Below the pieces are notes generated by a model, which did not search any database, was not told the origin of the DNA, and saw nothing but the letters and a program-made list of their open reading frames with translations. From assembly GCA_963738595.1 (NCBI GenBank), contig CAVTXF010000002.1:215168-279167 (forward strand): a stretch of DNA of 64,000 nt, given 5' to 3'. Both the position numbers and the translations under genes were made by a program. This stretch comes from an uncultured Alphaproteobacteria bacterium (GTDB lineage Bacteria > Pseudomonadota > Alphaproteobacteria > Rhizobiales > Aestuariivirgaceae). Below, one piece after another: positions 51,707 through 61,193 of the stretch (within the stretch, counting starts at the first letter, position 1; each line of letters starts with the position of its first letter).

Positions 51707-52687
51707 ATGAGTACTGCGTTATCGCGCAAGTCTGCGCGTGAACTTGTTGCATTTGATCCAGCCGTAAATCCGGCTTCACGACCGCCACAGCGCAGTGCAC
51801 CGCGTCCCGGCTCCAAGCCTGCGCATGTTGCTGCACCGTCTGCGCCGCGCGAAGGTCTTGGAACATATTTCATCCTTATCACATCGTTGCTGGCGATTGC
51901 CTATGGCTATTCGACACGCAATGCCGATGTGTTTGTTCCCTATGAAGGGGCCGGCTACTGGATTGGTGTTGCCGGCGGCAGCGGCATGCTGCTGCAGCTT
52001 GCCTATTCATCGGTCAAGCGGCTGAAATTTTTCCGGCGTCTTGCGGCTTCACGCATGCTCTTCCAGATGCATATGGTGCTCGGTCTCGCAGCACCCATCC
52101 TCATTCTCTATCACGCCAATTTTTCTTGGGGGGCAACGAACAGCAATGTGGCACTTGGCACCATGCTTGCCGTGGTTGCCAGCGGGCTGATTGGCCGCAT
52201 CGTTTACCGGCACATCCACTTTGGTCTGCACGGTGCCAAGGCCAACGCGAACCAGATGTTTGAACATGCCCGACACCTTTTGGGCGACATTGAAGAAGAT
52301 GTCGGCGGTTCGCAGGGTCAAATTGCGGCACGGCTTGCGAATTTCGCCGCGTTGCCGATCTTCCACGAGCGGTCATTGTCGCGGCAATTCGTTTCGGCGC
52401 TGGTCATACCTTTCAAAGTGCGGCTTGCCAGACTAAAGTTCAATTCAATGATTCGGCGAACCGTTGCTGAAAATGCGGTCAGAAACGGTTGGTCTAACGC
52501 AGAGCTGGCACGCCACAGGAAACAAGCACAACTGCATGTCAGGGATTTTCTCCAGTCTTTCAGCGCTGCCTCGCAGCTCGCCTTCTGGGAACGGTTGTTT
52601 TCAGTCTGGCACCTGCTGCATGTGCCCTTGTTCTACCTGCTGCTGGTCAGTGGCGTGGCTCACGTCATCGCAGTCCACTGGTACTGA
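51707..52687 (+). CDS. Inner-membrane bis-heme-b protein of the ferric-reductase-like transmembrane superfamily
   Basis: About 5 hydrophobic helices; two H-x13-H pairs (H-MVLGLAAPILILY-H and H-VPLFYLLLVSGVA-H); long helical soluble insert; first gene of the cytochrome operon. Confidence 0.72.
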   Translation: MSTALSRKSARELVAFDPAVNPASRPPQRSAPRPGSKPAHVAAPSAPREGLGTYFILITSLLAIAYGYSTRNADVFVPYEGAGYWIGVAGGSGMLLQLAYSSVKRLKFFRRLAASRMLFQMHMVLGLAAPILILYHANFSWGATNSNVALGTMLAVVASGLIGRIVYRHIHFGLHGAKANANQMFEHARHLLGDIEEDVGGSQGQIAARLANFAALPIFHERSLSRQFVSALVIPFKVRLARLKFNSMIRRTVAENAVRNGWSNAELARHRKQAQLHVRDFLQSFSAASQLAFWERLFSVWHLLHVPLFYLLLVSGVAHVIAVHWY

Positions 52688-52696
52688 GGATGTTCC

Positions 52697-54070
52697 GTGA
52701 TCAGGAGGCTGGCCCAATTCCAAATTGGCCTGGCCTTCCTGGTGGGTCTGGTGTTTCTTACAGGTCCCCTGTGGGCGCAAAACACAGTCGAAAACCTGGT
52801 TCAGCCTGACCTGCTGGCGACAGCACACAAGAAACTCGAAGAAGACTGCAGTACCTGCCACATGGCCTTCAAGAAGGCTGCGCAAAGCTCACTCTGTGCC
52901 GATTGCCACAAGCCGGTGAAACAAGACATTGCCAAGGGCGAGGGCTTCCACGGCAAGAATCCCCTGGTGAAAAAGTCCGAGTGTGCCAACTGTCACGCTG
53001 AACACAAGGGTCGCGACTTCAAACAGGACCGGTTCACCAGCATTACCTTCAACCATACTGAAACGGATTACCCGCTTGATGGCAAGCATGCCCAGGTGGA
53101 TTGCAATGGTTGCCATTTGCCGGGCAAGAAGTTCAGCGCAGCACCACATGCCTGTTTCGACTGTCACGAGAAGGACCAGCCACATCGCGGCAATCTGGGA
53201 AACAAGTGCGAGTCCTGCCACAACACCAAAGACTGGAAAAAGACCGCGATCTTTGACCACAGCAAGACAGACTTTCCGCTGAATGGCGCGCATGCCAAGG
53301 CGACATGCTTTGGTTGCCATGTCGGAGAAGTCTACAAGGGTGTCTCCAAAACATGTTTTGGCTGCCACGCGATGCAAGATGTGCATGATGCGCGGTTTGG
53401 CGAAAAATGTGAGAGCTGCCACACTGAAAAAGACTGGAAGCACAAGGCTTTTGATCATGGCAAGCTGACGCGCTTTGCCCTGACAGGGGCCCATGCCAAG
53501 GCCGCATGTGCCGACTGTCATGGCAAGAACCTCACATCAAAACTGCCGATGGGCTGCTTTGATTGCCACAAGAAGCAGGATGTCCACCTGGGCCAGCTTG
53601 GACAAAATTGCGAGAGCTGCCACAAGACTTCTGCCTGGCGGCAGGATGTGACATTCGACCATGCGCTCACGGCGTTTCCGCTGTCTGGTTTGCACGTCGC
53701 AGTGGCCTGCGAAAGTTGCCATGCGAGCCCAGCCTATAAAGATGCCAAGACAGATTGCTTCTCGTGCCACAAGAAGGACGACGTGCATGAAGGACGGCTC
53801 ACGGCAAAGTGTGAAAGTTGTCATTCGGCCTCCGGCTGGACAAAGGTTGCCTTCAACCACGATACCGGAACGAAATTCCCGCTGACGGGGGCGCACAAAA
53901 AGCTTGGTTGCCATGGCTGCCACAAAGAGAAAAACGTGGTTTCGGCCAGCCTTCCGGTTGCGTGTTATGCCTGCCACAAGGCCCAGGACATACATCGCGG
54001 GGCGTTTGGCCAGAACTGCGCCGAATGTCATTCAACGGTCAGTTTCAAAGGCGCAATTATCCGTAAATGA
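52697..54070 (+). CDS. Periplasmic multiheme cytochrome c, 18 CxxCH
   Basis: Hand count of 18 CxxCH; Sec signal ending PLWA-Q; GAGGA RBS, GTG start; five ~68-aa triheme repeats. Confidence 0.93.
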   Translation: MIRRLAQFQIGLAFLVGLVFLTGPLWAQNTVENLVQPDLLATAHKKLEEDCSTCHMAFKKAAQSSLCADCHKPVKQDIAKGEGFHGKNPLVKKSECANCHAEHKGRDFKQDRFTSITFNHTETDYPLDGKHAQVDCNGCHLPGKKFSAAPHACFDCHEKDQPHRGNLGNKCESCHNTKDWKKTAIFDHSKTDFPLNGAHAKATCFGCHVGEVYKGVSKTCFGCHAMQDVHDARFGEKCESCHTEKDWKHKAFDHGKLTRFALTGAHAKAACADCHGKNLTSKLPMGCFDCHKKQDVHLGQLGQNCESCHKTSAWRQDVTFDHALTAFPLSGLHVAVACESCHASPAYKDAKTDCFSCHKKDDVHEGRLTAKCESCHSASGWTKVAFNHDTGTKFPLTGAHKKLGCHGCHKEKNVVSASLPVACYACHKAQDIHRGAFGQNCAECHSTVSFKGAIIRK

Positions 54071-54211: not shown

Positions 54212-54268
54212 ATGCACAGAGGAAAAAGTCCAGTGGTGCCGTTGTCGGAAGAGTCGCTGCTTTCGTGA
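54212..54268 (+). other. Possible 18-codon upstream ORF (MHRGKSPVVPLSEESLLS) whose stop overlaps the GTG of the 17-heme gene
   Basis: Purine-rich GGAGAGGAAGG just before ATG 54212; TGA 54266-54268 overlaps GTG 54265-54267. Confidence 0.3.
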
Positions 54269-55632
54269 ATGGTGCGCTGTCATATTCCACAATCGCCAAT
54301 GCCGCCTTGCGTGGCATTGTGGCGTTGTTTGTGCTTCTCGTGCTGGCTTGCGGGTCTGCTTCCGCAGAAACAGTGATCGACAAGAATTTCGACCACTCCA
54401 GGACCAACTTTCCGCTGACCGGCAAGCATATCGATGTACGGTGCGAAACATGCCATGCGGGAGCCAAGTTCAAAGGTACTCCTACTGCCTGCTTTGCCTG
54501 CCATGACGGCAAGACAGCGTCGGGCAAGAGCCGCAATCATCCACCGACCACGAACCAGTGCCTGGACTGCCATGACACGGCACGCTGGAAAAATGTAAAG
54601 GTCGATCACAGCAAGATCTCGACCAACTGCTTCAGTTGCCATGACGGAAAGATTTCAACCGGCAAAAGCAAGACACATATTCGCAGCAGCGCAACATGCG
54701 AAGACTGCCACCAGGTGAGCACGTGGAGTGTCGCAAAATTTGACCATGCGATGACGACACTTCCCTGCGCCAGCTGCCACAATGGCGTGCAGGCCATCGG
54801 CAAGGGTCCGAAACATGTTCCTTCATCCAACAATTGCCTGTCCTGCCACACGACAGCGAAGTGGGAACTCAGCGGCTTTGATCATGCCGGCATTACCGGA
54901 TCGTGCTTTGGATGCCATAACGGGCGGGTCGCGACAGGCAAAACGCGCAATCATGTGAAGACCACCAATACCTGCGAAGACTGCCATTCGGTGCGGGTGT
55001 GGATTCCGACGACACGCTTTGACCATGCGTCAGCTCTCGGCAGCTGTGTGAGCTGCCACAGCGGCAAGGTGAAATCCTCTGAAGGGACGATCCAGGGAAA
55101 GTCGCGCAGCCACTTCAAGACAACCGATGCCTGTGAAACCTGTCATAGTGTGACAACCTGGACCACCTCGCGCTTTGACCATGCGGAAGCGCTGGGGACG
55201 TGTTTTTCGTGCCACGACAACCGGCATCCGCCAGCAGGTGGCAAGGGTCGCCGGCATTTTGCAACGTCGAATGCCTGCGAGGCCTGCCATGTTGTTTCAA
55301 CGTGGATCACTTCACGTTTCGATCACGCCGAGGCCAGCGGAACATGCTACTCGTGCCACGACAACAACCATCCGCCAGCCGGTGGCAAGGGCCGCAGGCA
55401 CTTTGCCACGTCGAATGTGTGCGAGGCCTGCCATGTCAATTCGACCTGGACGACCTCGCGCTTTGATCACGCGGAGTCGACCGGGACCTGCCTGTCGTGC
55501 CATGACAACCGGCATCCGCCAGCCACCGGAAAAGGGCGCAGGCACGTTGACACGGTGAAACCCTGCGATATATGCCACCTCAGCACTGCTGACTGGACGA
55601 TCCTCGATCCCAACTGGCCGCAGCTGCAATGA
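54265..55632 (+). CDS. Exported multiheme cytochrome c, 17 CxxCH, possibly a lipoprotein
   Basis: Hand count of 17 CxxCH; hydrophobic signal with VLAC (lipobox-like) and ASA-E (SPase I-like); one triheme plus seven diheme modules. Confidence 0.92.
   Translation: MNGALSYSTIANAALRGIVALFVLLVLACGSASAETVIDKNFDHSRTNFPLTGKHIDVRCETCHAGAKFKGTPTACFACHDGKTASGKSRNHPPTTNQCLDCHDTARWKNVKVDHSKISTNCFSCHDGKISTGKSKTHIRSSATCEDCHQVSTWSVAKFDHAMTTLPCASCHNGVQAIGKGPKHVPSSNNCLSCHTTAKWELSGFDHAGITGSCFGCHNGRVATGKTRNHVKTTNTCEDCHSVRVWIPTTRFDHASALGSCVSCHSGKVKSSEGTIQGKSRSHFKTTDACETCHSVTTWTTSRFDHAEALGTCFSCHDNRHPPAGGKGRRHFATSNACEACHVVSTWITSRFDHAEASGTCYSCHDNNHPPAGGKGRRHFATSNVCEACHVNSTWTTSRFDHAESTGTCLSCHDNRHPPATGKGRRHVDTVKPCDICHLSTADWTILDPNWPQLQ
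55170..55600 (+). repeat. Three tandem 144-nt (48-aa) diheme repeats within the 17-heme gene
   Basis: GCCA(C/T)GACAA recurs at 55211, 55355 and 55499; unit FDHAE..GTC.SCHDN.HPPA.GKGRRHF.TS..CEACH...W.TSR. Confidence 0.88.
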
Positions 55633-57833
55633 AGTATCGCGCATTCAAACAGTTGCACGGATTCAGCGCCAGCGTGATCGCATGCACGGTCGCCGCTTCG
55701 AGCCAGACCAGTATCGCGCAATCCGTGCCCCAGAAACTGATGACGTCCCTGCAAGTGACCGAAGATGGAAATTGCGAGCAAATTCACCTTCGGCTGAATG
55801 AAGCGGCGAACTTTGCCGGAGCGACACAAAGCGGAACGTCGGCCATCGTCGAAATTCCCATCGAGATCCTCGCGGGTGATACTCCGACACTGCCGACGGC
55901 AGAAATTCTGCCCGTCCCGGCCGACAATGCGGCTGGTGTGAAGACAATCGGATTTTTGCGAAATGCCGGGCAAACGCCCGCGATTGCCATCCGGTTTAAC
56001 GCAGCCGTCAACTATCGCATCATCATGGACGCTGAAACGCGCCATATCAGGGTTGATGTATCCAAGTCCGGCAGCACAGCGGCCTGCAACACAGGCCAGG
56101 CTGCAGTCGGCAGCATCACGCAACAGCCGCCAGCAGGGCCACTGGCACAAGCCAGTACCGCGATTGCGGCGGGACTCCATGAAGAGGCGCTGAAACTTCT
56201 GGCTCCCCTCATCGTGTCACTTGCCGGAAACGACAAGCAGAAGGCGATGGAACTCAATGGTCTGGCACTTGAGCGTCTCGGTCGGCTTGATGATGCCAAG
56301 TTGCAGTATGAAGCAACTCTCGCGCTTTTTCCCTCCCATGAAAGCAGCGGTCGCATCCGGCAACGCCTCGCTGATGTCGTTGATGCGCTGAACGCAGCAG
56401 CAATTGATGATGCAGCCAAGGGCGACCTGCCGCGCGAACTGCAGGGCGGTGACAAGGCCAACGAGAGTCTTGCCGACAACAGCGGGGCGCTGCGGGGGAC
56501 AATTGCACCCGAGAGCACGTTGCGCAGCATGCGCAAGATCAAGGACCCGGTTGTTGATCCTGACGCCTGGACCTGGACCAAATATGGCCTGGCCGGACAA
56601 GCCTATTACCGTGACGACCAGTTGGGTGATGACCATGAGCTTGTTGAAAGCGAAGTGATCAGCAATGTCAGCGTTGCCTTCAAGGGTGAAAACCAAAAAC
56701 GTGTTGTTTCCCTGCGGGTGGATGCGCTGAACCGGCAAGACCTTGGCATCAATGGCAACGAACGCAAGAACAGTGTCGCGACGTTCTATGCCGACGTTCT
56801 CGACAAGCCTTCCGGTGCTTCGGCGCGCATCGGCCGGCAGGTGCGCAATGATGGTGGCATCTTCGGGCGGTTCGACGGCGTTTCGATGACGTACAAAGCG
56901 AACAAGGCCCTTGACCTGTTGATTGCCGCAGGTTCGCCGGTTTATGACCGTGGCGCGCTTCCCTTTGAAGATGAGATGTATTTTTTCAGCGCCAGCGGGG
57001 TTTATGAATTCCCGGACAGCCCGTGGAGCAGCGAAGTCTACGTGATCGAGCAACGGGCTGGCAGCATCGTTGACCGGCGGGCGATTGGCAGCGAACTGAG
57101 ATATGAAACCGATGACCTTTCGGGCTACACGGGCATTGATTTTGATTTCAACCAGAACAAGGTCAGCAGCGCATTCATTTCAGCAAACTGGCAAGCGAAT
57201 GACCGGCTGGCGCTGAACGCGTCCCTGGACTTCCGGACGCAGCCATTCTTGCTGACATCCAACGCGCTCTCAGGGCAAGAACTGGACAGGCTGCCGAGCC
57301 TGGTCAACCTGCTTGGTGAAAAGCAGGTGCTGATCCTGGCCAAAGACCGGACCGCTGACGCGGTGACGGCAGCACTTGGCATCAGTTATACATTCTCTGA
57401 CACATGGCAAATGTCATTCGATGCCTTGTGGTCAGATGTGTCGGGGATGCCAGCTTCCGGCGGCATTGATGAAATCCCCGAACTTGCCAATGACATTTAT
57501 GTGGGGGCCTATCTCAATGGTACCAGCATTCTCAAGACTGGCGATACATTGGGACTTGGCCTGACCTACAGTCATGGTGAAAGGCGCTCGAAGATCGGCG
57601 CTGACATTTCCTGGCGCTTCCCGGTTGACGAGGCATTGCGCCTTACCACGCGGCTCAGGACCACTGTGACCACGCGCAACGGGGACGCCATCTACAGCAT
57701 CACGCCCAGCATTGGTGCGCGTTACCGGATCGACAAGCACTGGCTGCTGGAGTCGGAGCTTGGAGTGACCCTGCAAAACGGCGAAATGCCTGCAGAACTG
57801 CAGGCATTTGCCGGATACAGATATGAATTCTGA
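55629..57833 (+). CDS. Outer-membrane beta-barrel protein with an N-terminal periplasmic beta domain and TPRs (putative cytochrome-associated porin)
   Basis: ATGA overlap with the 17-heme gene; TPR (KAMELNGLALERLGRLDDAKLQYEATL); ~420-aa C-terminal region of alternating amphipathic strands ending AGYRYEF (terminal-Phe BAM signature). Confidence 0.8.
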   Translation: MKYRAFKQLHGFSASVIACTVAASSQTSIAQSVPQKLMTSLQVTEDGNCEQIHLRLNEAANFAGATQSGTSAIVEIPIEILAGDTPTLPTAEILPVPADNAAGVKTIGFLRNAGQTPAIAIRFNAAVNYRIIMDAETRHIRVDVSKSGSTAACNTGQAAVGSITQQPPAGPLAQASTAIAAGLHEEALKLLAPLIVSLAGNDKQKAMELNGLALERLGRLDDAKLQYEATLALFPSHESSGRIRQRLADVVDALNAAAIDDAAKGDLPRELQGGDKANESLADNSGALRGTIAPESTLRSMRKIKDPVVDPDAWTWTKYGLAGQAYYRDDQLGDDHELVESEVISNVSVAFKGENQKRVVSLRVDALNRQDLGINGNERKNSVATFYADVLDKPSGASARIGRQVRNDGGIFGRFDGVSMTYKANKALDLLIAAGSPVYDRGALPFEDEMYFFSASGVYEFPDSPWSSEVYVIEQRAGSIVDRRAIGSELRYETDDLSGYTGIDFDFNQNKVSSAFISANWQANDRLALNASLDFRTQPFLLTSNALSGQELDRLPSLVNLLGEKQVLILAKDRTADAVTAALGISYTFSDTWQMSFDALWSDVSGMPASGGIDEIPELANDIYVGAYLNGTSILKTGDTLGLGLTYSHGERRSKIGADISWRFPVDEALRLTTRLRTTVTTRNGDAIYSITPSIGARYRIDKHWLLESELGVTLQNGEMPAELQAFAGYRYEF

Positions 57834-57839
57834 ACGCGC

Positions 57840-60800
57840 TTACAGAATGAAATCGACCGCTCTCAATTCGTGGTGACCTGCCAGCTCAATCTGGAAATCA
57901 GCCTTGGCATCGCCGTCAACGTCAACTGCAACAATCGTGTTGTCACCCGAGAAGCGATAGTCAACGTCTCCGGCCCGGCCCGAAAGCCCATGCCAGCCGA
58001 TGAACTTGAAGGCGTTGTTGCCGCTGGCAAAGCTGTTGGCGTCAATCGATGACAGATCAATCCTGTCGGTTCCCTGGTTGAAATCCATGACCACATCGCG
58101 TGATCCTGCAGCGGTGCCGGAGTCCTTCAGGGAATTGAAGTCGAAGACGTCCTTGCCGCCACCGCCCCGCATCGTGTCCACCCCGGTTCCGCCTGCGAGA
58201 CGGTTGGCAGATTCGTTGCCGATCATGATGTTGTCAAGCGAATTGCCGATGCCGTTAATTGCCTTGGTGCCGCTCAGTTGCACGCTTTCGACATTTGCAC
58301 CGAGGCGGAAATTGACCAAGGTCTTGACCAGATCGCGGTCGGCATTGGCGGTTTCGATAACCTGGTCGCTGGACCCGTCGACGATATAGATATCGGTGCC
58401 AGAGCCACCATAGAGCTTGTCAGCGCCGAGGCCACCATTCAGCACGTCATTGCCGCCGCCGCCGCTCAGCATGTCATCACTCTGGCCGCCGAATATCTTG
58501 TTGGCGCCCTTGTTGCCGACGATGGAATTTGCCAGGGCGTTGCCTGTTGCGTCGAGTGCTGCAGATCCCGTGAGCATGAGATTTTCGACATAGGCACCCA
58601 GCGTGTAGCTGATTGAGGATCTTACGGTGTCAGTTCCACCGTTTGCAATCTCAACAGCCCGGTCGCCAGAGTCATCGACGTAGTAAGTATCATTGCCGTC
58701 GCCGCCGTAGAGCATGTCGGCACCAGCGGCACCATTGAGCGAATCATCACCCGCGAGGCCGTAGATCGTGTTGTTGTCGGCATCGCCATTCAGCGTATCG
58801 GAATTGCCCGTGCCATTGTTGGTCGTTCCACCGCCAGTTCCACCACCTGTGCCGCCGCCTGTTCCACCACCTGTTCCTGCGGTCAGATTTGCCAAGGTGA
58901 CAGTGCCGTCGGAGAATTTGAAATTCTCGACGTTGGTGACCGTTTCGACGCCGTCGCGGCCTGTCGTCAGATCGGTAATCCTGACCGTCGTGGCATTGAT
59001 GGAAGTGACCTGATAGTTGGCCTTTGCGCCCGTAAGCACTAGCGTATCGTCACCTGCTCCGCCATCAACCGCATCGTCGCCACCGAGACCGGACAGGGTG
59101 TTGCTGGCGCTGTTGCCCGTGAGGCGGTTGGCAAGGCTATTGCCCGTGCCATTCGTTGCGCTTGTCCCGGTGAGTTCAAGGTTTTCAACGTTTGCGCCGA
59201 GGATATAGGCAATCGCAGACCTGACAGTGTCAGTTCCTTCGTTTGCCTGTTCCGTGATCGTGTTGCCGCCTGTGTTGATGACATAGATATCATCGCCCAG
59301 ACCGCCGACCAATGTGTCGGCACCCACAGCCGCCGTCAGCGTATCATTGCCGGCAAGGCCGTTGATGGTGTTGTTCATTGAATTGCCGGTCAGCGTGTCG
59401 GCACTTGCGGTGCCGTTGATCACGACAGGGTCACCGGGAACAACAACCGGAATGAAGCTTGCGACGGTATAGGAGGTGCCGCCGATTTCGATTTTGGTGA
59501 TGCCCGAGAGCGTGTCGGTGACGCCGCCAATCGTAACGGTGGCGTGGGTGGCGTCCGTTGCGGTGATGGAGTAGTTCCCAACGGCACCCGTGTAGACGGC
59601 TGTATCAGTACCGCCGCCGCCCGTCAGTGTGTTGGTGGCGCTGTTGCCGGTGAGACGGTTGTCCAACGTGTTGCCGGTTCCATTGCTTGCACCCGAACCG
59701 GTGAGTTCAAGGTTTTCGACGTTTGCGCCGAGGCTATAGGTGATTGCCGACCTGACAGTGTCGGTGCCTTCGTTTGCCTGTTCCGTGATGGTGTTGCCGC
59801 CCGCGTTGATGACATAGATATCATCGCCCAGACCGCCGACCAATGTGTCGGCACCCAAAGCTGCCGTCAGTGTATCATTGCCGCCGAGGCCATTGATGGT
59901 GTTGTTCTGCGAATTGCCAGTCAGCGTGTCGGCACCCGCGGTGCCATTGATGACGACGGGATCGGCCGGGACAACAACCGGAATGAAACTTGCGACGGTA
60001 TAGGAGGTGCCGCCGATTTCGATGGTGGTGATGCCCGAGAGCGTGTCGGTGACGCCGCCAATCGTAACGGTTGCGTGGGTGGCGTCCGTTGCGGTGATGG
60101 AATAGTTCCCCACAGCACCCGTGTAGACGGCCGTATCGGTGCCGCCGCCGCCAGTCAACATGTTGCTGGCGCTGTTGCCGGTGATGCGGTTGTTGAGTGC
60201 GTTGCCGGTGCCATTGATCGCGGTGGACCCGGTGAGGACCAGGTTTTCAACATTGGCTGTCAGGGTGTAGCTGACTGCTGCGTTGACAGTGTCGGTGCCT
60301 TCATTGGCATTTTCGACGACGACATGGCCGCCGGCATCATTGATGTTAAAGGTATCATTGCCCTGACCACCATTCATCGTGTCGGTGCCGCCGGAGGCGG
60401 TGATCGTGTCGTTGCCGGCCAGACCATTGATGGTGTTGCTGACGGAGTTGCCCGTCAATGTGTCAGCGCCTGCGGTGCCATCGATTTGGACCGGCGTGAC
60501 TGGAGGTGGAGGAGGAGGTGGTGGCGGTGGTGGAGCAACCGTGACCAGCGTGCCGATGGCAAAGGTGCCGTCAGTGAATTTCACGTTTTCGATGTTGAGC
60601 AACTGGTCAGTGCCGTCAGCACCCGTGTTATCAACGATCTGGTACGTGGTGCCACTTACTAATGTGACAGTGTAATTGGCTTTTGCGCCCTGCATCACAA
60701 CAGTGTCTGTGCCTGCCGCGCCGTCGATCGTGTCATTGCCACCCAAACCAAAAAGCCATGCATCGGATGCAGTCGTACCTGTAATCGTATTTGCAGCGGC

Positions 60801-61064
60801 AGTGCCCAAGTTCAGTGTGATGTCAGCATATTTGAACACTTCGAAATTCTTGAACTGCATTGTCCCTGCGCCGCTTGCGCTGGTTGCCACCAGTGTGCCA
60901 TCGTTGAGGGCACTGAGTGTGAAGTAGCGCGCAGCTGCCGAGCGGGTGTCGGTACAAGAAATCGTATCTGTACCGGCAAGACCATCATAAATATTATTCC
61001 AAGTGAGACCCTGCTTCAGCACGGAGTTGGTGTCATTACCTGTGGTATGATTGATCAGTGCCAT
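57840..61064 (-). CDS. Large RTX/Ca2+-binding repeat protein, probable type I secretion substrate (1074 aa, no catalytic domain seen)
   Basis: Start reassigned to ATG 61064 (GGAGA RBS); many GGxGxDxL nonapeptides, VENL.LTG beta-roll repeats, serralysin-like C-terminus D.IDLSSIDAN...DFIL; no Sec signal. Confidence 0.9.
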   Translation of the reverse strand: MALINHTTGNDTNSVLKQGLTWNNIYDGLAGTDTISCTDTRSAAARYFTLSALNDGTLVATSASGAGTMQFKNFEVFKYADITLNLGTAAANTITGTTASDAWLFGLGGNDTIDGAAGTDTVVMQGAKANYTVTLVSGTTYQIVDNTGADGTDQLLNIENVKFTDGTFAIGTLVTVAPPPPPPPPPPPVTPVQIDGTAGADTLTGNSVSNTINGLAGNDTITASGGTDTMNGGQGNDTFNINDAGGHVVVENANEGTDTVNAAVSYTLTANVENLVLTGSTAINGTGNALNNRITGNSASNMLTGGGGTDTAVYTGAVGNYSITATDATHATVTIGGVTDTLSGITTIEIGGTSYTVASFIPVVVPADPVVINGTAGADTLTGNSQNNTINGLGGNDTLTAALGADTLVGGLGDDIYVINAGGNTITEQANEGTDTVRSAITYSLGANVENLELTGSGASNGTGNTLDNRLTGNSATNTLTGGGGTDTAVYTGAVGNYSITATDATHATVTIGGVTDTLSGITKIEIGGTSYTVASFIPVVVPGDPVVINGTASADTLTGNSMNNTINGLAGNDTLTAAVGADTLVGGLGDDIYVINTGGNTITEQANEGTDTVRSAIAYILGANVENLELTGTSATNGTGNSLANRLTGNSASNTLSGLGGDDAVDGGAGDDTLVLTGAKANYQVTSINATTVRITDLTTGRDGVETVTNVENFKFSDGTVTLANLTAGTGGGTGGGTGGGTGGGTTNNGTGNSDTLNGDADNNTIYGLAGDDSLNGAAGADMLYGGDGNDTYYVDDSGDRAVEIANGGTDTVRSSISYTLGAYVENLMLTGSAALDATGNALANSIVGNKGANKIFGGQSDDMLSGGGGNDVLNGGLGADKLYGGSGTDIYIVDGSSDQVIETANADRDLVKTLVNFRLGANVESVQLSGTKAINGIGNSLDNIMIGNESANRLAGGTGVDTMRGGGGKDVFDFNSLKDSGTAAGSRDVVMDFNQGTDRIDLSSIDANSFASGNNAFKFIGWHGLSGRAGDVDYRFSGDNTIVAVDVDGDAKADFQIELAGHHELRAVDFIL
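58820..58880 (-). repeat. (GGGT)n linker inside the RTX protein
   Basis: Translation AGTGGGTGGGTGGGTGGGTT. Confidence 0.8.
59100..60180 (-). repeat. Tandem duplication with 531-nt (177-aa) period inside the RTX gene
   Basis: GTGTAGACGG at 59590 and 60121; AGGAGGTGCC at 59471 and 60002; protein copies near-identical; boundaries approximate. Confidence 0.9.
60501..60533 (-). repeat. Eleven consecutive Pro codons (poly-proline linker)
   Basis: Minus-strand CCN x11, mixed CCA/CCT/CCG. Confidence 0.9.
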
Positions 61065-61193
61065 TTCGCTTCTCCAGACGGACAGAATTTCAAATAGGGC
61101 CGACCAATGATGTTTGCCCGGCACGGGTTCAGAAAAATTTTCTCGGTTTTGATTGTTTGAGGCGGCACGCCGCCCCAAACTTACATGTCATTC

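Follow-up and report, generated by a model that had tools for sequence, protein, structure and literature searches.

The locus and the 17-heme cytochrome

The window (the whole stretch of DNA analyzed here, 64,000 nucleotides in length) contains four genes in a row on the forward strand, encoding an inner-membrane protein (51707..52687), an 18-heme cytochrome (52697..54070), a 17-heme c-type cytochrome (54265..55632) and an outer-membrane protein (55629..57833). We assign the cluster to the PCC3 type because its synteny and motifs match those of PCC3 as described by He, Barco, Emerson and Roden in 2017 (PMC5566968); PCC3 is also described by Hoover et al. 2023 (PMC10734462). The inner-membrane partner in PCC3 is approximately 300 aa long and carries SGxxG as well as H-x13-H in two places (PMC5566968), and the translation of the first gene of the window cluster likewise has H-x13-H twice, with W-x3-H-x13-H near the C-terminus, and the SGxxG element in the form SGLIG. 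The same four-gene order was found in two sets of loci, numbering 11 and 15. The 18-heme cytochrome is built of c7-type triheme repeats and is the invariant partner, with 18 CxxCH motifs in the window protein and in all eight complete orthologs compared (454-471 aa). Within the genome, which is 99.4% complete, the 17-heme and 18-heme genes are the only open reading frames with three or more CxxCH motifs, and thus there is no separate surface cytochrome.

The outer-membrane protein (734 aa) is predicted to comprise an N-terminal beta domain, TPR-like helices, a linker and a beta-barrel of approximately 22 strands, those assigned by DSSP spanning residues 315-733 of an AF2 model with a pLDDT of 72.8. 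A porin of the MtrB type was considered and rejected, given the strand number (MtrB has 26) and the Foldseek matches, which were generic outer-membrane barrels, ushers and exporters of the AlgE/PelB/BcsC type; MtrB was not among the top 50. The TGA of the 17-heme cytochrome gene overlaps the ATG of the barrel gene (ATGA), as it does in G155, the genome of the nearest species, and the barrel gene is translationally coupled to that of the cytochrome.

The 17-heme gene has a GTG start and encodes 455 aa with 17 CxxCH motifs, while a search of the protein for CxxxCH, CxxxxCH and CxxCK returned none. This amounts to 26.8 aa per heme overall, and to approximately 25 in the mature chain. Its 37 His residues are accounted for by 17 proximal ligands, 17 distal ligands and exactly three spares, and since there are only two Met residues, His/Met ligation is unlikely. 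The composition supports the view, at the level of sequence, of a densely packed multiheme protein in which every heme is bis-His ligated. The Pfam families Cytochrome_C7, Cytochrom_c3_2 and Paired_CXXCH_1 are all matched above their cut-offs, and the scores for PF14522 (69.3 bits, cut-off 24.8) and PF14537 (68.9 bits, cut-off 25) place the protein in the cytochrome c7/c3 superfamily.

Following the signal peptide (aa 1-34, 54265..54366), an N-terminal triheme unit (aa 42-112, 54388..54600), collinear with that of the orthologs, is succeeded by diheme modules M1-M4 (aa 113-303, 54601..55173), by modules M5, M6 and M7 (aa 304-447, 55174..55605; three times 144 nt, of a 48-aa 'HPPA' subtype), and by a short C-terminal tail with the stop codon (55606..55632). 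The motif layout bears out the original prediction of 17 hemes in one triheme unit and seven diheme modules, and the modules are regular at 46-52 aa each. The spacer of eight or nine residues that had been claimed throughout between CxxCH and GK is found in M5-M7 (x8), whereas it is x6 in M1-M3 and x12 in M4. Module M1 has positional orthologs (64-76% identical), which occupy the same place in the long orthologs.

Orthologs, the C-terminal cap and the signal peptide

Within one GTDB genus, the orthologs carry 17, 17, 19, 21, 35, at least 51, 53, 55, 55, 55, 57, 59, 65, 65 and 81 hemes. It had been proposed that the wire evolves in length by module duplication, a proposal against which an invariant module number would have spoken; the number proved hypervariable, and tandem gain and loss of modules across the 17-81 hemes of the genus is a family-wide process, with near-identical adjacent modules present in G140, G143 and G145. 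The window and G155 form a sub-lineage in which the number of hemes is a constant 17. The G155 protein is 78% identical in amino acids to the window's (the porins are 60% identical), matches it in the position of every one of the 17 hemes and also has M5-M7, and as this independent assembly has identical architecture, collapse of repeats during assembly is argued against.

Where the window protein ends in its short tail, the other orthologs continue into a C-terminal triheme domain of approximately 110 aa (motif ..PDCAxCH..ELRDCxGACH.Y.D..HR..F/W). We refer to this domain as the cap, an empirical feature of the orthologs compared and not a published criterion of PCC3. It is present in all orthologs with an available C-terminus except those of the window and G155, and in 45 of 120 database homologs (42 apparently full-length and three truncated), including ones of 13-15 hemes. 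The cap is absent from the window protein, from the G155 protein, and from anywhere in the G000 genome, where a search for a separately encoded copy yielded nothing beyond weak, generic matches to CxxCH within the 18-heme gene. No further member of the capless lineage was found in either of two wider searches: a metagenome scan with the window and G155 alignment returned only distant relatives (at most 32% identity over long stretches), and a search of 5.8 billion proteins gave no match above 50% identity. As judged from these comparisons, the protein is a derived and stable short form within its family. What appears to be new here is that all other orthologs, and 13-15-heme homologs elsewhere, are capped while the window and G155 proteins are capless, and that among the orthologs a lipobox-like Cys occurs only in these two.

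Both processing sites claimed for the signal peptide are present, namely a lipobox-like V-L-A-C29-G (Cys29 codon 54349-54351) and an A-S-A|E signal peptidase I site five residues after Cys29. Capped orthologs have plain AxA|Q/E signal peptidase I sites. Were translation to begin instead at a TTG (Leu15), the signal would be short and of textbook lipoprotein type; no better ribosome-binding site was seen at this TTG.

Among the alternatives, the likeliest is that the capless lineage gained a lipobox, such that the short wire would be tethered N-terminally to the outer membrane beside the barrel (under default Lol sorting, in its inner leaflet), with the tether replacing any positioning role of the cap or of the long extension. 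The Cys lies at the same residue in both species (V-L-A-C-G in the window, L-L-A-C-S in G155) even though the h-region itself has diverged, and the signal peptides of capped orthologs contain no Cys. A signal peptidase II substrate is expected to end its h-region in a lipobox (strictly [LVI][ASTVI][GAS]C) with the Cys among residues 15-35, and to have a positive n-region; in V-L-A-C29 the -3 and -1 positions fit, but Leu at -2 fits only a broader PROSITE-style pattern, although a crude census of 40 candidate lipoproteins of this genome found 'LLA' before the Cys in three. Among database homologs, eight of nine lipobox-bearing proteins are capless, yet 47 capless proteins are without a lipobox, which makes for a weak association that carries no weight in our reading. 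Against lipidation, the A-S-A|E site is ideal, is equally conserved in G155 and sits at the cleavage position of the orthologs; the first seven residues counted from the GTG contain no K/R, R16 being the sole positive residue; and the argument from conservation depends on two sequences. On balance we regard a lipoprotein as a reading to be taken seriously, with somewhat less than an even chance of being correct. Lipidation, if present, would under Lol-type sorting put the protein on the periplasmic face of the outer membrane, and would not by itself bring it to the surface. The fuller scenario, in which the window and G155 lineage lost the cap and more than 30 hemes, gained the lipobox Cys, and thereby turned a long Sec/SPI extracellular nanowire into a short lipid-tethered trans-outer-membrane wire, we offer as tentative and rather doubtful.

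A soluble periplasmic store or shuttle of electrons (a capacitor) outside the barrel, with the 18-heme protein or nothing crossing the outer membrane, would be consistent with the signal peptidase I site, with a 22-strand barrel narrower than the 26-strand MtrB, and with a literature in which PCC3 cytochromes are without experimental localization, the published 'extracellular' label resting on CELLO/PSORTb only. However, the gene overlaps the barrel gene or sits directly upstream of it in every cluster, and a length variation of 17-81 hemes is hard to fit in a periplasm of fixed width. In addition, the protein has a heme spacing like that of MtrA/DmsE which is not common to the 18-heme protein: the DmsE/MtrA family model (TIGR03508) matches aa 52-266, covering hemes 1-10, at 65.7 bits (E 4.2e-18), far below its cut-off of 192.2, as compared to 17.6 bits for the 18-heme protein. 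We consider a capacitor improbable.

Age and character of the M5-M7 array

The original prediction described the last three modules as DNA-level near-copies at 144-nt spacing by which the wire had recently been lengthened. The spacing is borne out by TRF, which reports an array of 144-nt period at 55154-55568 (2.9 copies, 75% matches, no indels, score 466). The copies are not near-identical, however, DNA identity being 76% for M5 and M6 and 63-65% for M7 against these two. M5 and M6 disagree at half of their third codon positions, and dS among the three modules is approximately 1-2.2 (saturated) with omega of 0.04-0.3, the M5/M6 pair giving 1.7-2.2 and 0.04-0.07. Moreover, M5-M7 have one-to-one counterparts in G155 with heme positions identical, in a gene that is itself synonymously saturated against the window's (dN 0.127). 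Among 266 modules of the family, M5-M7 are each other's nearest neighbors. We read the array as old and lineage-specific, made when a 48-aa 'HPPA' module of a type already in existence was triplicated in tandem, and kept since under purifying selection.

The motifs DN(R/N)HPP and GKGRRH are, as claimed, confined to M5-M7 within the 17-heme protein, and each of the three modules carries one spare His together with GKGRRH. (The triheme unit likewise contains an 'NHPP', whose His is at the canonical ligand position.) That the duplications added the extra His is not supported, given that the spare-His subtype (CH-D-N/G-x-H-P-P-A-x-GK) is ancestral and present in every full-length ortholog in one to four copies, the residue before PP across ortholog modules being H in 21, W in eight, R in seven and K in five. 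GKGRRH is unique to the window and G155 lineage. The distal end is not net positive as had been supposed, with net charges of +1 for M5, 0 for M6 and -2 for M7 with the tail, against +5 for the N-terminal triheme unit; no other part of the protein is less basic than M5-M7.

These data bear directly on the possibility that the wire was just lengthened by 144-nt duplications, and that a lipid-anchored protein at the surface would have acquired in the process a new tip, positively charged and with a spare His, for docking on minerals. The mutual proximity of the modules does indicate tandem duplication in this lineage, GKGRRH is kept in six of six modules across the two species, the lipobox-like Cys is kept in G155, and recent duplications do happen in relatives. 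Divergence of the copies, the same array in a saturated sister species, the ancestry of the spare-His subtype and the lack of distal basicity nonetheless stand against it, and the protein is the shortest among its relatives. The 'recent' component is largely refuted, and the reading as a whole strikes us as very unlikely. Weaker still, to the point of being scarcely credible, is the notion of an internally deleted, C-terminally truncated PCC3 cytochrome nearing loss and with no function of its own: unlike every other ortholog the protein is capless, and it has at least 30 hemes fewer than most, the cluster occupies the longest branch of the porin tree, and PCC3 is patchy (28 of 155 other genomes of the genus) with a G156 porin interrupted by seven internal stops, but all four genes of the window are intact, the capless 17-heme architecture and the translational coupling are kept in two species at the divergence given above, and neither the CxxCH motifs nor any of the 34 His that serve as heme ligands have been lost. 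Loss of an otherwise universal cap could still have altered or reduced the function.

A probable short porin-adjacent wire and its relation to known systems

Taken as a whole, the evidence makes it likely that the product of the 17-heme gene is the multiheme cytochrome found next to the porin in PCC3-type clusters, an electron wire probably threaded through the barrel, in a derived, short and capless form. As we envision it, the cluster would consist of an inner-membrane protein of di-heme-b type, the 18-heme and 17-heme cytochromes, and the outer-membrane barrel. Sec export and heme attachment would yield a chain with 17 bis-His hemes bound at approximately 25 residues per heme; this wire would be co-produced with the barrel of approximately 22 strands by way of the ATGA overlap, and its first ten hemes appear to resemble the MtrA/DmsE decaheme in motif spacing. 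It may carry electrons between the periplasmic 18-heme wire and the outside of the cell. The sequence data establish the number of hemes, the modules, the synteny, how the orthologs compare, the age of the triplication and the lack of a cap; barrel threading, the direction in which electrons flow and the physiological substrate we infer.

Extracellular electron transfer is a candidate function of PCC3 clusters, which are widespread, and the window locus is the smallest natural PCC3 found here, its 17 and 18 hemes belonging to the sole multiheme cytochromes of the genome. Its congeners, with 19-81 hemes, make up a comparative series for asking what sets the length of the wire, what role the cap has, and whether a lipid anchor can substitute for it. 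That length varies only in the porin-adjacent wire while the 18-heme partner is fixed constrains models as to which component spans a periplasm of fixed width. Should the wire prove to be lipid-tethered as well as capless, it would amount to a naturally occurring 'minimal PCC3', from which one could learn what the cap and long extension are, or are not, needed for.

Like the 'extracellular' cytochrome of PCC3, the window protein adjoins the porin in a cluster of inner-membrane protein, two multiheme cytochromes and porin, and shares with PCC3 cytochromes many CxxCH motifs, a very low residue-to-heme ratio, heme-bearing repeats and a heme number that varies among genomes. Slit_0868 of Sideroxydans lithotrophicus ES-1 also has 17 CxxCH motifs, and both PCC3 clusters of that organism are down on Fe(II) (PMC8788666). 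PCC3 systems are not known from experiment to move electrons, and we found no publication that connects the Aestuariivirga-like genus with multiheme cytochromes. The present case departs from known PCC3 in its host, an Aestuariivirga-like alphaproteobacterium of the Hyphomicrobiales, and from the other orthologs in its missing cap, its conserved lipobox-like Cys and its hemes fixed at 17 in the sub-lineage.

The AF2 model of the cytochrome is moderate (pLDDT 73, pTM 0.41) and gave no PDB match in Foldseek; the sole PDB match by sequence is 6r2q_A (E 1.5e-3), which we take to be MtrA, chain A of the MtrCAB complex. As in the decahemes MtrA, DmsE and MtoA, the gene for a bis-His wire immediately precedes that for an outer-membrane barrel, but the window protein has 17 hemes in place of 10 and regular diheme modules of 46-52 aa, and its predicted barrel combines approximately 22 strands with a large beta/TPR extension in the periplasm. 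With the c7-type polymers of Geobacter (dodecaheme GSU1996, PF14522), it has in common a modular, repeat-built wire, matches to Cytochrome_C7 and a triheme first unit. Unlike those polymers, it is triheme in the first unit only and diheme in the rest, its hemes are apparently all bis-His ligated, and its gene is encoded with a porin and an inner-membrane protein of heme-b type.

The cytochrome gene and its cluster

The product of 54265-55632 (+) is, judged from its sequence, a genuine multiheme cytochrome of a known kind. The open reading frame starts at a GTG codon and encodes 455 residues with 17 CxxCH and no variant heme motifs, and Pfam recognizes cytochrome c7/c3 and paired-CxxCH domains. 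Its 37 histidines divide into 17 proximal, 17 distal and exactly 3 spare residues; with 17 distal histidines and only 2 methionines, bis-His coordination is possible for all hemes. As originally predicted, a triheme unit (aa 42-112), here preceded by a 34-aa signal sequence, is followed by seven diheme modules (M1-M7) of the pattern F/V-D-H, x6, CxxCH, spacer, GK, x3, H, x6, CxxCH, x4, W. The predicted spacer of eight or nine residues holds for M5-M7 (x8), but not for M1-M3 (x6) or M4 (x12). Tandem Repeats Finder recovers the expected 144-nt repeat as a single array at 55154-55568 (period 144, 2.9 copies, 75% matches, no indels, score 466), and the motifs D-N-(R/N)-H-P-P and G-K-G-R-R-H are indeed confined to M5-M7.

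The gene is flanked on the same (+) strand by genes for a membrane protein of 326 aa that has two H-x13-H pairs and SGxxG (51707-52687), an 18-CxxCH cytochrome of c7-type triheme repeats (52697-54070) and a 734-aa barrel protein (55629-57833), the ATG of which overlaps the cytochrome TGA as ATGA. In predicted content this four-gene set is a match to PCC3, a porin-cytochrome cluster type (inner-membrane protein, two multiheme cytochromes, porin) that He et al. put forward in 2017 (PMC5566968) and that Hoover et al. pursued further in Gallionellaceae in 2023 (PMC10734462). Internal repeats and variable heme counts of PCC3 cytochromes are already published (PMC5566968, PMC10734462), and in Sideroxydans ES-1 both PCC3 clusters are down-regulated on Fe(II) (PMC8788666). 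Hoover et al. describe AF2 models of these cytochromes as long and linear (PMC10734462); our AF2 model of the 17-heme protein is moderate (pLDDT 73.2, pTM 0.41) and had no PDB match by Foldseek, so that an elongated fold is only putative here. Judging by related loci, the cluster occurs in Aestuariivirga and further Hyphomicrobiales, and a literature search found no paper tying Aestuariivirga to multiheme cytochromes. Convergent to the barrel gene lies a gene for a 1112-aa RTX calcium-binding repeat protein (57840-61178, -), and RTX-type proteins are also encoded near the cluster of the nearest relative, G155 (L039 2-3115).

Age of the module array and heme number among relatives

The original prediction held that the protein had been recently lengthened by modules that are near-copies at the DNA level. 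A module HMM extracted 266 diheme modules from the full set of orthologs; among these, M5, M6 and M7 are mutual nearest neighbours (88, 63 and 63% amino acid identity), and they did originate by tandem duplication in this lineage. They are not near-copies, however, as DNA identity is only 76% for M5/M6 and 63-65% for M7 against the others. Between M5 and M6, 24 of 48 third codon positions differ (dS 1.7-2.2, omega 0.04-0.07), and pairs with M7 give dS of 1.0-2.2 and omega of 0.15-0.37. G155 (identity to the window 60% for the porin, 84% for the 18-heme protein and 78% for the 17-heme protein) has an ortholog of 446 aa whose 17 CxxCH fall at residue numbers identical to those of the window protein; the alignment is gapless up to the last ten residues, and all three modules contain D-N-(K/R)-H-P-P-A-G-G-K-G-R-R-H. 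Given that the same M5-M7 are present in G155 and that synonymous sites between the two genes are saturated (whole-gene dN 0.127), the triplication is older than the split of the two species, and it has stayed under purifying selection. Recent lengthening is thus refuted by the dS of M5-M7, by their G155 counterparts, and by the window protein being the shortest form among the orthologs compared.

Ortholog clusters were located with the barrel protein as marker, which is patchy in the same GTDB genus (28 of 155 other genomes) and was absent from all 85 genomes searched in the other genera of the family. One porin homolog (G156:C4:464383-466107) has 7 internal stop codons, and the PCC3 cluster of that genome has apparently decayed. 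Wherever a cluster offers enough sequence, the 18-heme partner is constant at exactly 18 CxxCH (454-471 aa). The porin-adjacent cytochrome, by sharp contrast, ranges from 17 to 81 CxxCH: 17 in the window and G155, 19 in G140, 21 in G143, 35 in G154, at least 51 in G022 (where a contig end cuts the gene), and 53, 55, 55, 55, 57, 59, 65, 65 and 81 in the remainder, with lengths up to 2357 aa. Near-identical adjacent diheme modules in G140 (L052, aa 263-308 versus 309-354), G143 (L043, three copies, aa 308-445) and G145 (L005/L040) show truly recent tandem duplications; module duplication is therefore active in the family, in agreement with the published repeats and heme counts. The long cytochrome gene of G145 and that of G142 are each broken into overlapping frames, possibly through frameshifts or through misassembly of the repeats. 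The proposal that wire length evolves by module duplication, already published, is therefore upheld at the family level; module number varies across the genus but is invariant within the window/G155 sub-lineage. What is new is the within-genus span of heme numbers.

The missing cap, the signal sequence and the spare histidines

The most distinctive feature of the locus is a missing C-terminal domain. All orthologs with an available C-terminus, other than the window and G155 proteins, carry at their C-terminal end a conserved ~110-aa domain (the cap) that contains three CxxCH and is marked by P-D-C-A-x-C-H, E-L-(K/R)-D-C-x-G-A-C-H-x-Y-x-D and, at the very end, H-R-x5-(F/W). Pfam detects weak generic c7/c3 similarity only, and we know of no description of this domain. 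It closes the porin-adjacent cytochromes of L006-L015 and L040-L053 (in the 59-heme ortholog at L014:9294-9668), and its HMM matches 45 of 120 database homologs (42 apparently full-length, 3 truncated), 13- and 15-heme proteins included, such that capped porin-adjacent cytochromes span 13 to 81 hemes; one capped homolog, P0027, is encoded immediately upstream of a barrel homolog of 741 aa. The window and G155 proteins stop a few residues past M7, where the cap would start, and none was found encoded elsewhere in the source genome, G000. No further close relatives exist in the collections searched. Also new is this variant itself, which is conserved and short, lacks the cap and may be lipidated.

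The signal sequence contains both the lipobox-like V-L-A-C29-G and the ASA-E site that had been noted. The cysteine is at residue 29 in the window (V-L-A-C) and G155 (L-L-A-C), the preceding h-region having diverged, and 'LLA' precedes Cys in 3 of 40 lipoprotein candidates of G000 in a crude census. Leu at -2 falls outside the strict lipobox, and G000 Pal and BamD have canonical A-A-C and S-G-C. In the capped orthologs, without exception, the signal region lacks Cys and has an ordinary AxA-(Q/E) site, with 7-40 residues from there to the first F-D/N-H, and A-S-A-E-T-V-I-D-K-N-F-D-H of the window protein is the positional equivalent of these sites. Processing by signal peptidase II is possible, though somewhat less likely than not. 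Under default Lol sorting, a protein lipidated at its N-terminus stays tethered to the periplasmic side of the outer membrane; such an anchor would fit an MtrA-like orientation and would not by itself make a surface component. G000 encodes a GspD secretin, so the protein could also reach the surface by type II secretion.

The claim that the duplications added an extra histidine fails, as each full-length ortholog has 1-4 copies of the 48-aa subtype C-H-(D/N)-(N/G)-x-H-(P/A)-P-A-x-G-K, which in L013 and L015 is also the final module ahead of the C-terminal domain. The residue preceding P-P is H in 21 cases, W in 8, R in 7, K in 5, N in 1 and F in 1 (the window's three included), and the extra histidine therefore came with the module type and is not strictly conserved. 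Such modules always keep the canonical G-K-x3-H ligand, and a second-shell or propionate-contact role would fit the spare histidine better than that of a new iron ligand. Within G-K-G-R-R-H, the G-R-R is found only in the window/G155 lineage, where 6 of 6 modules keep it; it is thus under constraint. Net side-chain charge is +1 for M5, 0 for M6 and -2 for M7 plus tail, with +5 for the triheme unit and +3 for M3; at the sequence level, the C-terminal end is not the positively charged tip that had been proposed.

A possible electron route and known systems

We consider it probable that the 17-heme wire, with the barrel, links the 18-heme periplasmic wire to the outside. The inner-membrane di-heme-b-type protein would connect to the invariant 18-heme wire, and the latter to the cell exterior through a 17-heme bis-His wire that would be produced jointly with the ~22-strand barrel and would probably run through it. 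Both the threading and the direction of flow are suggested by gene order, by translational coupling and by a weak MtrA/DmsE likeness. A six-frame scan of G000 (3.55 Mb, 99.4% complete) returned only two ORFs with at least three CxxCH, those of the 18-heme and the 17-heme protein. Should the cluster carry electrons across the outer membrane, the 17-heme protein must therefore be its outermost heme component.

The AF2 model of the barrel protein (pLDDT 72.8) places a beta domain at the N-terminus (aa 38-145), followed by TPR-like helices at 171-263, a linker that is disordered (263-306) and, over 315-733, ~22 strands interrupted by a short helical insert (558-573). Its Foldseek matches are outer-membrane barrels generally (pilus ushers, AlgE, Occ porins, PelB/BcsC-type exporters), among them the TPR-plus-barrel polymer exporters PelB, BcsC and AlgE; MtrB is absent among the best 50 matches. 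The 17-heme protein resembles MtrA/DmsE weakly, over hemes 1-10 (aa 52-266), where the NCBIfam DmsE/MtrA-family match is sub-threshold (65.7 bits against a cut-off of 192; the 18-heme protein reaches 17.6 bits only), and the sole PDB chain it matched by sequence is 6r2q_A (E 1.5e-3), which we take to be MtrA of the MtrCAB complex.
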